This document shows positions 1,121-63,540 of a stretch of 64,000 nucleotides of DNA, one piece after another. The stretch is taken from NCBI GenBank assembly GCA_964016885.1, contig OZ024756.1, positions 17,484,001 through 17,548,000 on the forward strand, given 5' to 3'. The DNA is from Eledone cirrhosa (taxonomy: Eukaryota). The notes under the pieces are model-generated. The model made no database searches, was not told where the DNA came from, and saw only the letters and a list, made by a program, of their open reading frames with translations. Both the position numbers and the translations under genes were made by a program. Position 1 is the stretch's first letter; the number at the start of each line of letters is the position of its first letter.

Positions 1121-1800
1121 CTAGGTTAGCATCATCGGGGCTGTTTTCGTGCCCATCGCAATCTCAGATTTCTGTCTGTAGAATTTGTCATTGAATACGA
1201 AGTAGTTATTCTCCAAGACAAATTTGAGCTCTTCTATTATGAATTCTTTTATGATGCGGCGTGGGAGTTCATTGGAGTAATTTTCTAGCCAGAATTGGAT
1301 TGCTTCTATTCCTAGGTTGTGGGGGATATTGGAATATAGGTTGACTACATCAAAAGACACTAGTAGGGTTTGTTCATTATTAAGTGTTTTGGGGAGGTGG
1401 TTGAGCATATCAAGGTCATCCCTTATGTAGCTTTTAATGTGTTTAAGGAATGGTTTTAATAGGGTATCAAGGAAGTTGCTGAGTGGTGGGTTTCGTAAGC
1501 GGGGTCTGCTATTATAGGTCTTAATTTGAGGTCATTAGGTGAGGGTACATTGGTGAATATATCTGTGGCCGCCTTGCATGCCTTACTTATTTTTTTACTG
1601 TTATGTATCTTAGGAATACCGTAAAAAAGACTAGATTTACTTTTGAAGTCAGTGATATAGTTGTATTCCTTATCGGTAAGTCCTTCTCTGTAAAGCTTTA
1701 TAAGAGTTTTTAGGTTTCTCATTATTTTCTGTTGACTATAGTGTTCAGCTTTTCGTAGTATGCTTCATCTTCTAAAATGGAGGGCACTAGAGTTGTATAA
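1121..1800 (-). pseudogene. Penelope-like retroelement reverse transcriptase fragment, frameshifted
   Basis: Motifs FYGIPKIH, LRPII, LVSFDVVNLYSNIPH, LENNYFVFNDKFYRQ and AMGTKTAP are typical of PLE RT. Split over two ORFs. Confidence 0.92.
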
Positions 1801-3466: not shown

Positions 3467-3744
3467 TATATTACCTTCTCCTAGTCGTCATATAAAATTC
3501 TATGTGTATCTGTTATGGTTTTATTGCTGAAACCTATTATTTTGTGTTGTTTCTAGCTCCACGGACAGAGCTTTGGCTTGTGTCAGACGCTGTGACCCCA
3601 GGTGGACCAGCAGAACCGTCAGTAGGGGTCGAAACTGCCAAAGTTCATATCGATGGCTGAATACCTTGGATTCTGTGTAAGGTTGCCCCTTAAAATAATT
3701 TTTATCGTTGTATACAACGAACAAAACAAGGCATAATTGGGGCT

Positions 3745-50794: not shown

Positions 50795-51335
50795 TAGTTT
50801 CTGAATTTGTTTAGCATGATTCTTCATCTGAAATCGTGTGTTGAAACCGATATTGTTATACTTTAGGAGGGTCATGTTGCCAATAAGAAACACACGCACC
50901 AGTTGCTTTCACTTCAATTTATTATAATAAATTTATAATAAATTTATAAATTTATAAATTTCTGGTTGGTTGGTTGGTTCCACAACCAGATAGTTGTTTA
51001 TATATAGTCATAGTTCTTTCGTCACACACTCTGTGCCTCTCCTTTGTTCTGTCCTACGCCATTTTGTTTCACAGAAACAAAATGGCGTAGGACAGAACAA
51101 AGGAGAGGCACAGAAACAAAGAAAGGAATCCCCAGTCATTGAAGAGGTCACAGAGTGTGTGACGAAAGAACTACGACTATATATAAACAACTATCTGGTT
51201 GTGGAACCAACCAACCAACCAGAAATTTATAAATTTATAAATTTATTATAAATTTATTATAATAAATTGAAGTGAAAGCAACTGGTGCGTGTGTTTCTTA
51301 TTGGTAACATGACCCTCCCAAAGTATAACAATATA
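50795..51335. mobile_element. Head-to-head pair of family C pLTRs forming a palindrome of about 480 bp
   Basis: Centre near 51070 (CCATTTTGTTTC-ACA-GAAACAAAATGG). The right arm has an HHR at about 51135-51177 with a C3 change; the left arm has an internal deletion. Confidence 0.8.
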
Positions 51336-55335: not shown

Positions 55336-55388
<53 letters not shown>

Positions 55389-55594
55389 ATATAATAATAA
55401 GGGCGCTGCGGAGTTACATATGAAAAAAGTTTGTCCTTCAAACCATCATAGGCATTTCATCGCTTTAAAGACCATATACCTCCGGTTGGTGCGAGCAACG
55501 GCTAAAAAAAGTCGTTGGGACACGTAAATAAAGGGGACGCGAGGGTAAACAAACAAAATGGTGAAGCAACAGAAAGTGAGGAAGAAAGAGACAA

Positions 55595-55642
<48 letters not shown>

Positions 55643-58064: not shown

Positions 58065-58104
<40 letters not shown>

Positions 58105-58195
58105 AAAAGTTATGAAACGAAAGGAGCTGTGTGGTTACTAAAAATAAGGTTTAGGATGGTGGGTAGGAGGGAACAGGAGGAGAAAGGAAGAAAGG

Positions 58196-58315
58196 AGTTT
58201 CCATCGTCAGCTGTCAATGTTTCCCGAACCGATGTTTCGGCGCTGAATTACAGGACATCGGTGTAGTTCGGGTGCGCCCGAGGCCTTTTTTTTAAATCAA
58301 AAGGCCAGGTGAAAA
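58196..58315 (-). ncRNA. Candidate permuted/pseudoknotted hammerhead-like RNA
   Basis: CCGATG-TC-CTGTAAT-TCA-GCGCC-GAAA-CATCGG...ATTGACAG-CTGACGA; see findings. Confidence 0.45.
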
Positions 58316-58557
58316 AGGAGAGAGAAAGAGAGAAAAAAAATGGGGAGAAAAAAGGAGAGAGAAAAGGAAAGAGAGGGAAAGGAGGAAGAACAAGGAGGGG
58401 GGGGGGGAGATGAGGAGAGGGGATATATATATATATATATATATATACAGGGAGTGTAACGTGAAGTTACTGTAGGTTCACCCGGGTGAGCACTCGATAT
58501 TTAGGTTCACGTCAGTAGCGAGGTGTAGCGCTAGACAGAGTGTAATATAGTAATATC

Positions 58558-60680: not shown

Positions 60681-61016
60681 TAATATATAGTAAGAAACAG
60701 TAAACCGTGTGTCTAAAATTACAAGGGTTGAAAAACCACATATGTTTGAAATATTTAACCAAGAAGCAGACAGAATGATAACATAAAAATAAAAATATAT
60801 TATTATAATACAATAATATATTTTTATTTTTATTTTATCATTCTGTCTGCTTCTTGGTTAAATATTTCAAACATATGTGGTTTTTCAACCCTTGTAATTT
60901 TAGACACACGGTTTACTGTGTTTCTTACTATATATTATTAATCGGCTCAGTATTTATTTATACTTTATACTTAGAGCTTAATAGTTACAGGGTTCCAATT
61001 GAGTTTTAACTCTAAT

Positions 61017-62882: not shown

Positions 62883-62913
<31 letters not shown>

Positions 62914-62962
62914 AGAATAAACGTGCTGCGGAGTTGCAAATGGGTTACATATGAATAAAGTG

Positions 62963-63064
62963 GTCCTTCATCAGTGATCTTCCAACCATCATCGGTATTT
63001 CTTCGCTTTAAAGATCATATACCTCCGGTTGGTGCGAGCAACGGCTAAAGAAAGTCGTTGGGAC
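62963..63064 (-). ncRNA. Candidate permuted/pseudoknotted hammerhead-like RNA (element 62913-63080; partly deleted sister copy 55395-55600)
   Basis: GGTA-TA-TGATCTTT-AAA-GCGAA-GAAA-TACC...AAGATCA-CTGATGA-AGGAC. Confidence 0.5.
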
Positions 63065-63540
63065 ATGTAAATAAAGGGAATACACACACACACACACACA
63101 CACATATACGTGTGTGTATGCGTGTTCTCATATTTATGTGCGTGTGTGTGTGAATGAGTGCGCACGTATTCATGCGAGAGAAGAGAAAGAGGCAGAAAGG
63201 GAGAGAGAGAGAGAGAAAGAAAGAGAGAGAGAGAGAGGAATGCGTAAAGAGGAAGATAAGGATAAGGAGTAGGATTTTCTCAGTTCGAAGTATCGATTCA
63301 ATTTTGCCGTGAAAAAAAAATATGTGTGGCAGGTGGATGGGGGGGGGGGGGGGGGGGGGGGGGGGCAGGTGGGGGGGGGGGGATATTCCTGTTCCTTCTT
63401 TTCACGTTCAAACTCTGCAGTCTCATGACTCCTGTGAAGAAATCACATGCACAGGAACACGCGCACGCGCGCCTGCAGGCACGTGCACGTACGCATCTGC
63501 ACACCTGCGCACATTTGCCAGCACAGTTTCTCCGCCACCC

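Follow-up and report, generated by a model that had tools for sequence, protein, structure and literature searches.

Hammerhead ribozymes are assembled from three conserved blocks, S, G and C, assumed to be uninterruptible, and natural RNAs with the block orders SGC and CSG cleave in vitro (Eckert et al., 2023, PMC10085705). In that work, the type-SGC examples derive from metatranscriptomes only, with none from the genomes of known organisms, and type CSG is represented by two metagenome sequences. An extra base between positions 9 and 10.1 is conserved in Penelope hammerheads and present in CChMVd, animals express tandem hammerhead repeats in circular form, and an anole Penelope-like element is copied by target priming from an internal start (further background in PMC11167929, PMC3088659, PMC4209133 and PMC1636495). 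Non-LTR retrozymes have been searched for with type I descriptors, the only kind used in one preprint (10.64898/2026.07.22.740005). For Naiads, the published description reports no canonical hammerhead and flags some elements as having a 'core' or 'half core' (Craig et al., 2021, PMC8557442).

We describe a motif at 58.2 kb in a 64,000-nt stretch of the Eledone cirrhosa genome (GCA_964016885.1, contig OZ024756.1; this whole stretch is the window). We predict that it is the terminal part of a non-coding Penelope-type repeat with a complete site-GAAA-CUGAnGA core, and that it is self-cleaving, with stem II formed via a four-way junction and the cut after GUC at 58254 (between 58254 and 58253); we give this reading a probability of roughly 0.72. 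The blocks run in the type-SGC order (site, GAAA, CUGAnGA), and the core nucleotides CUGAnGA, GAAA and UH are all present. From 5' to 3' the elements are the 5' strand of helix IIa, hairpin IIb, the 5' strands of stem II and of a clamp helix, block S, a linker, block G, the 3' strands of the clamp and of stem I, CUGAnGA, and the 3' strand of IIa (Table 1). The strand following CUGAnGA and the strand preceding GAAA each pair with a strand of their own upstream of block S, and these two upstream partners (IIa 5' and stem II 5') flank hairpin IIb; in B and C types (subfamilies described below), IIa 5' runs into IIb without a linker. Its two strands, one following stem II 5' and the other preceding stem I 3', place the clamp where the published helix of stem I-stem II interaction lies. 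By analogy, the clamp and the short linker would together supply the tertiary contact that stem I makes with stem II.

Table 1. Coordinates of the 58.2-kb motif, its parts and related copies in the window
Feature	Position	Strand	Remarks
5'-truncated non-coding repeat copy, subfamily A	58103..58422	-	(TA)n on both flanks; monomer about 745 nt in tandem copies
Helix IIa 5' strand (closing helix), TTTTCA	58310..58315	-	pairs with 58198-58203
Hairpin IIb, inserted in the predicted junction	58279..58309	-	pair probabilities 0.93-1.0
Stem II proper, 5' strand ('splint'), GGCGC	58274..58278	-	pairs with 58239-58243, directly before GAAA
Clamp helix (stem I-stem II), 5' strand, CCCGAA	58267..58272	-	pairs with 58223-58228, TTCGGG
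Block S: stem III 5' strand, GUC triplet, stem I 5' strand	58247..58261	-	
Within block S: stem III strand and UC	58261-58254	-	
Within block S: stem I strand	58253-58247	-	
Linker from stem I to block G	58244-58246	-	3 nt, also typical of type SGC (PMC10085705)
Block G: stem II 3' strand, GAAA, stem III 3' strand (CATCGG)	58229..58243	-	GCGCC-GAAA at 58243-58235
Stem I 3' strand, CUGACGA core, helix IIa 3' strand	58198..58218	-	
Within this stretch: ATTGACAG	58218-58211	-	
Within this stretch: CTGACGA	58210-58204	-	
Within this stretch: TGGAAA	58203-58198	-	
Tail motif GYAACYMCRCAGC	58126..58138	-	common to subfamilies A-E
Subfamily B copy, same fold	62892..63080	-	monomer about 635 nt
Third B-type copy	55339..55596	-	deletion of CUGAUGA and of the stem I 3' strand
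Decayed copy of family F, same fold with flipped polarity of helix IIa	3473..3679	+	cut site and core mutated

Stem II is not formed here from the strands adjoining CUGAnGA and GAAA, and block C is interrupted. The motif is therefore set apart from type SGC, since all described forms have a direct stem II. The conserved RNA motif is real and, judged on its sequence, hammerhead-like by every criterion except the direct stem II.

The first-pass annotation had presented the locus as a second, highly diverged copy of a permuted hammerhead-like motif at 63.0 kb. All the elements that it listed are present at the positions given (minus strand, 58198-58315), and the spacings agree with its account: GAAA to CUGA measures 24 nt at 58.2 kb and 23 nt at 63.0 kb, and the stretch from stem I to GAAA is 8 nt at both. 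The idea of a second copy is wrong, as the 58.2-kb motif belongs to a separate high-copy subfamily (A). Nor is the bulged stem I a feature of the family, whose stem I runs unbroken over 6 bp; at 58215 only the window copy has G (T in 43 of 43 other A copies compared), and the bulge is thus a mutation. The order that had been read as C-B-A is real, and what escaped notice is its identity with the published type-SGC permutation. Similarly, the helices named 'splint' and 'distal' pair as claimed; the first most likely represents stem II proper and the second the clamp between stems I and II, identities that had been missed. A third point missed was the position of the motif at the end of a Penelope-type mobile repeat.

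The 58.2-kb motif forms the 3' part of a dispersed, high-copy, non-coding repeat in the 3.0-Gb genome. First-look candidates numbered 793 for subfamily A (58.2-kb sequence) and 2,999 for subfamily B (63.0-kb sequence). Exact patterns returned 502 matches for the A clade and 618 for a third clade (C), each against 0 in the reversed control, and the superfamily pattern GAAA-N19-26-RCUGAYGA-N0-1-GGA returned 23,979 against 1,690 (a few overlapping matches are possible), giving a superfamily of roughly 20,000 dispersed core matches. Copies of A and B are 94-99% alike among the best matches. As described for Penelope-like elements, Naiads among them (Craig et al., 2021), the copies are 5'-truncated at varying points, inserted in (TA)n and frequently arranged as partial tandems or inverted pairs; as in non-LTR retrozymes, the tandem units (periods of 445-785 nt) carry one ribozyme each. 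The longest ORFs were 52 codons in one A monomer and 61 codons in one B monomer. Downstream of the core, B copies end at 16 nt or at 54-66 nt, and A copies mostly at 97-109 nt. The tail motif lies 30-75 nt after the core in A-E, just upstream of the usual 3' ends, and is a candidate start signal for reverse transcription; a 12-nt word downstream of it is common to A and B.

Family F is an older repeat (about 75-80% alike) with the same fold, a flipped IIa, a 12-bp hairpin and a canonical G10.1-C11.1 pair. It is probably a separate lineage, because it seemingly lacks the tail motif of A-E. The ribozyme elements often have as a neighbour another frequent repeat, also inserted in (TA)n, whose internal inverted repeat contains GUCGAAAC. 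A tandem satellite of ~32 nt with CUGACGA-like words (C2:8.24-8.27 Mb) is a chance match to the pattern. The B/C-type pattern gave no matches in metagenome and viral contigs.

In the subfamily B copy at 63.0 kb, the cut is predicted after AUA, between 63018 and 63017. There is a Penelope-like RT remnant at 1130-1780 (-). Repeats at about 25740 (+) and at several other loci have CUGAnGA and GAAA in ordinary order; these hammerhead words, canonical or of a minimal type I-like form, lie within inverted (TA)n-flanked repeats or downstream of remnants of Penelope-like endonucleases. Two long near-perfect hairpins (51030-51114 and 60697-60918) have Rfam microRNA matches below the gathering score.

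A descriptor run beside shuffled sequence and an alignment of subfamily representatives both come out in favour of the fold. With the order cut site, GAAA, CUGAnGA and at least 4 pairs each in stems I and III, the descriptor finds exactly 2 motifs in the 64-kb window; shuffling in 500-nt blocks gave 100 control windows with a mean of 0.04 motifs each, and none of these had 2. The alignment was made on sequence only, from 20 B/C-type representatives drawn from clusters of parsed copies and from the window; 92.2% of its 652 cells are paired and 19 of 33 pairs show two-sided change, figures that overstate independence because the subfamilies are related and the rows were hand-picked from clusters already past the pairing thresholds. 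None of 500 shuffles scored as high, and slid controls were 28-44% paired. Two-sided changes occur in all six helices, including 5 of 6 pairs in stem I, 3 of 5 in stem III and 4 of 5 in the clamp (93% paired); hairpin IIb is paired in 96% of cells. Families A and F are absent from the alignment, as an all-family MAFFT alignment misregistered both. Of 37 A-clade copies, 33 have A-U and 3 have U-A as the proximal IIa pair, and in family F the proximal IIa pairs are flipped from CC/GG to GG/CC. Full parses were obtained for 192 copies in 53 clusters, with several pair types in every helix, a variety that is inflated because registers were fitted. The fold with compensatory changes, which had been argued from two families, is upheld across far more than two.

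Nested folding of the 58.2-kb motif gives z = -2.5, and an Rfam search returned no hammerhead family, only three unrelated matches at E 4-6; the order is pseudoknotted and outside the scope of both methods, which accounts for the low z-score and the lack of a match. For one B copy, the minimum-energy fold contains all of the nested helices IIa, IIb, clamp and III. In nested folding of subfamily A, a competing hairpin occupies the stem II and clamp strands; like the stem I mismatch of the window copy, this counts against the prediction.

A blind test took the loci around the first 100 listed matches of the superfamily pattern, in which 100 pattern matches were recovered, chosen on GAAA, CUGAYGA and GGA only. 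Stems I and III were found in 80 and all six helices in 75, the means being 0.65 and 0.4 when the upstream 100 nt were shuffled (20 rounds). Among the 25 that failed, many can be seen to be inverted or truncated at the 5' end. These results bear on the possibility that the pairings are a by-product of repeat descent, in which chance core words were amplified many times. Such descent is consistent with the non-independence of the copies, the persistence of 1,690 matches in the reversed control and the modest z-scores of nested folding, but it fits poorly with the excess of six-helix matches over shuffled sequence in the blind test, with two-sided changes in every helix, with the flipped helix of family F, and with the same layout, read by eye, in unrelated sequences of cnidarian, acanthocephalan and mollusc Naiads. 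We regard this explanation as already largely refuted and extremely improbable.

Only 48 of the 196 parsed copies could form a direct stem II of at least 2 pairs between block C and block G, so that the split helix, with stem II and IIa each paired upstream, is needed. One alternative is that the RNA is a plain type-SGC hammerhead whose direct stem II is very short (GG following the core, CC preceding GAAA), which would relegate the splint and IIa to a strand-exchanging off-state or a folding aid. A 2-bp stem with G10.1-C11.1 can indeed be drawn in subfamily A and in Naiad_Ovul, and a plain SGC reading with 3 bp of direct stem suits, by eye, the Naiad_Lpol and Ppla ends. In 148 of 196 parsed copies, however, no more than 1 direct pair is available, both the splint helix and IIa show covariation with their own partner strands, and in family F and Naiad_Plae the strand after the core is of CC type and pairs upstream. 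We consider the short direct stem improbable. The 10.1-11.1 pair, normally G-C in hammerheads, keeps this identity in A, F and the published Naiads; that it is unpaired in 10 of 12 scorable B/C-type representatives counts against the prediction.

The same fold appears, by eye, in published Naiads. We read by eye 29 of the 54 consensus 3' ends available in PMC8557442 (File S5), most for the last ~600 nt only. The split fold was read in 6 of 29, from three phyla and with different helix sequences: the Octopus elements Ovul and Obim, acanthocephalan Plae, box-jellyfish Naiad-2_Movir, coral Amil and, less cleanly, squid Esco. In these elements the six-helix layout lies after the ORF and the sequences are unrelated; in Naiad_Plae, for example, stem II appears as GGCCCC/GGGGCC and stem I as GAGGAG/TTCCTC, with IIa of the flipped type. 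Type CSG was read in 5 of 29 (Parc, Naiad-3_Nbra, Hpol, Smim and Naiad-1_Nbra), and plain SGC with a 3-bp direct stem II in 2 of 29 (Lpol and Ppla). By eye, the CSG-type elements, from nematodes and spiders, have an enclosing clamp helix, and the plain-SGC elements, from a horseshoe crab and a crab, have a long insert in the stem I-stem II linker. No hammerhead core was seen in the viewed part of 13 of 29, and Ptep, Sdum and Naiad-3_Dst are ambiguous. Four bivalve and hemichordate ends appear to have a different conserved stretch in common. To judge from these sequences, the split, CSG and SGC folds are likely to explain the reported absence of hammerheads in Naiads, and the split fold of the repeat most likely came from a Naiad 3' end.

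No coding element bearing the fold came to light in this genome among the Naiad RT and GIY-YIG loci examined, which counts against the reading. No Penelope-type ORF joined upstream of a ribozyme copy was found among the copies examined, and the repeat monomers lack the ORF with N-terminal GIY-YIG and RT that characterizes Naiads. The genome contains 59 Naiad RT matches, most with stops or short open frames; the split fold was absent at the 22 of these examined, all decayed. The Naiad remnants are about 70% alike and without the fold, and the decayed RT remnants resemble, by eye, the published Octopus Naiads. A word specific to Naiad_Ovul had 0 matches in the genome, and the pattern DFSTLYT had 8 against 10 in the control, some of these being decayed Naiad remnants. 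No sequence link to a Naiad was found in the repeat outside the ribozyme. Because the A and B copies are young, as their likeness indicates, the enzyme that acts on the repeat in trans probably does not come from this decayed Naiad family. Two decayed motifs (C1:229903711 and C4:374057216) carry the stem II-GAAA-stem III word of a published Octopus Naiad, and no ORF was detected upstream of either.

From 10,596 first-look GIY-YIG candidates, 150 were scored and 50 loci examined. All 50 are C-terminal-endonuclease elements, some with long intact ORFs and several with ordinary minimal hammerhead words. Of three split-fold copies near GIY-YIG loci, one is on the opposite strand and two were shown to be inserted separately. 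Penelope-like elements with a C-terminal GIY-YIG and intact, Neptune-like open frames of 844-1,096 aa occur at C1:145.87 Mb, C5:100.72 Mb and C1:83.81 Mb and are candidates for the active enzyme. In one Penelope-like family (two loci), the word UUGAUGG...GAAA or GAAU stands 3' of the GIY-YIG ORF, where a hammerhead core is expected, and is possibly a variant core.

We follow standard hammerhead numbering and the general stacking rules for four-way junctions in proposing a structure and a life cycle. Stem II, formed by the splint strand and the strand before GAAA, would stack on the G12-A9 pair, and the 3-nt linker and the clamp would keep stem I alongside stem II, a task that usually falls to a loop-loop contact. 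Helices IIa and IIb may stack on each other and lead the 5' and 3' ends of the RNA out between A9 and 10.1. The topology would then be that of the CSG/SGC cycle opened inside block C, between A9 and 10.1, with IIa and IIb inserted. Tandem transcripts could be cut to monomers after the triplet, and the monomers re-ligated to circles, by analogy with animal retrozymes, or the RNA left uncut. A Penelope-like reverse transcriptase/endonuclease supplied in trans would nick (TA)n and start near the tail motif, by target-primed copying from an internal start as in the anole Penelope-like element. Copying through the cut site would produce fixed 3' ends and partial tandems.

The ends of the copies are relevant to this scheme. 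Among 221 copies, 5' junctions fall within 1 nt of the predicted cut in 4, with no peak, which counts against the prediction, and most copies cross the cut site; the template is thus usually circular or uncut. Distinct A-clade junctions into (TA)n number 15, of which 9 fall 0-5 nt downstream of the cut and the other 6 upstream of it, a distribution confounded by TA microhomology. In several head-to-head inverted copies, few cases in all, one arm starts within about 5 nt of the predicted cut.

Read-through of the cut would also suit a conserved fold that cuts poorly or only with protein, its main role being as a binding or folding signal for a Penelope-like RT and the uncut RNA being the real template. 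Precedent exists, in that the literature describes weak cleavage by minimal Penelope hammerheads and an active Penelope-like element with a protein-dependent hammerhead, which insertion in vitro could do without and which gave no reads ending at the cut; moreover, the largest subfamilies have often lost the 10.1-11.1 pair. Copies that cross the site are, however, also expected from a circular template. In addition, subfamilies and phyla alike retain U16.1, a non-G position 17 and stems I and III around the scissile bond, which is a requirement of catalysis and not obviously one of a mere binding site. Position 17, which played no part in selection, is A in 125, C in 69, G in 1 and U in 1 of the 196 parsed copies. 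We therefore consider a mainly non-catalytic role rather unlikely and retain the prediction of self-cleavage.

We lean towards a broader interpretation, in which the motif is an active hammerhead whose catalytic core contains a four-way junction and whose arrangement would be a seventh, beyond the scheme of six permutations. The arrangement would be ancient in animal Naiads (cnidarians, acanthocephalans and molluscs) and, together with the CSG and SGC forms, would indicate that this clade was never without a ribozyme and instead uses a reverse-cycle hammerhead, the non-coding derivatives here being circular-RNA retrozymes in 20,000 copies. The literature searched, which included few subscription journals, yielded no hammerhead with helices inserted between A9 and 10.1 and nothing tying permuted hammerheads to Naiads, cephalopods or animal genomes. 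Activity of the split geometry is thus without citable precedent. A word search for 'octopus' in the available SGC alignments of the Eckert supplement gave 0 matches.

If the predicted cutting is true, these would be the first non-circularly permuted hammerheads in animal genomes, in tens of thousands of copies; previously such forms were found only in unassigned environmental sequences, bar one doubtful bacterial case. The split fold would contradict the published assumption of an uninterruptible CUGAnGA block, and it would bear on structure, on search descriptors and, because two helices could be swapped next to the core, on engineering. It also offers a direct, testable answer to the stated puzzle of Naiads 'lacking' hammerheads, since cut sites are predicted for published elements identified by name. 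The occurrence of CSG, SGC and split forms in one retroelement clade would provide a natural series for the evolution of ribozyme permutation.

Among described ribozymes, type SGC (HRIMA-1; PMC10085705) is like the present motif in the order site, GAAA, CUGAnGA, the full conserved core, the short stem I-stem II linker and the helix clamping both stems. It differs in having a direct stem II joining blocks C and G, whereas block C is interrupted here after A9 by IIa and IIb, and in being known from metatranscriptome sequences and not from a high-copy animal genomic repeat. The SGC descriptor in the supplement to that paper would miss the split form, because it requires a direct stem II and CUGAUGA. 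Type CSG has the same cyclic block order and clamp, and the split fold opened elsewhere gives CSG; unlike the motif here, it has a direct stem II, no inserted junction, and ends between stem III and the clamp (PMC10085705).

With the non-LTR retrozymes (PMC7229834; Li et al., 2026), the repeat shares non-coding tandem or partial-tandem monomers, one hammerhead per unit, a dispersed distribution and presumed mobilisation by Penelope-like elements. Those retrozymes carry type I hammerheads, whereas the order here is S-G-C, and the monomers here (445-785 nt) are pyrimidine-rich. Naiads (PMC8557442) carry an ORF, which the elements here lack, and resemble them in (TA)n targets, 5' truncation and tandem and inverted arrangements. 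Their 30-40 nt 'tail' is matched in subfamily B by two 3' end positions about 40 nt apart, and several of their published consensus 3' ends appear, by eye, to have the same fold.
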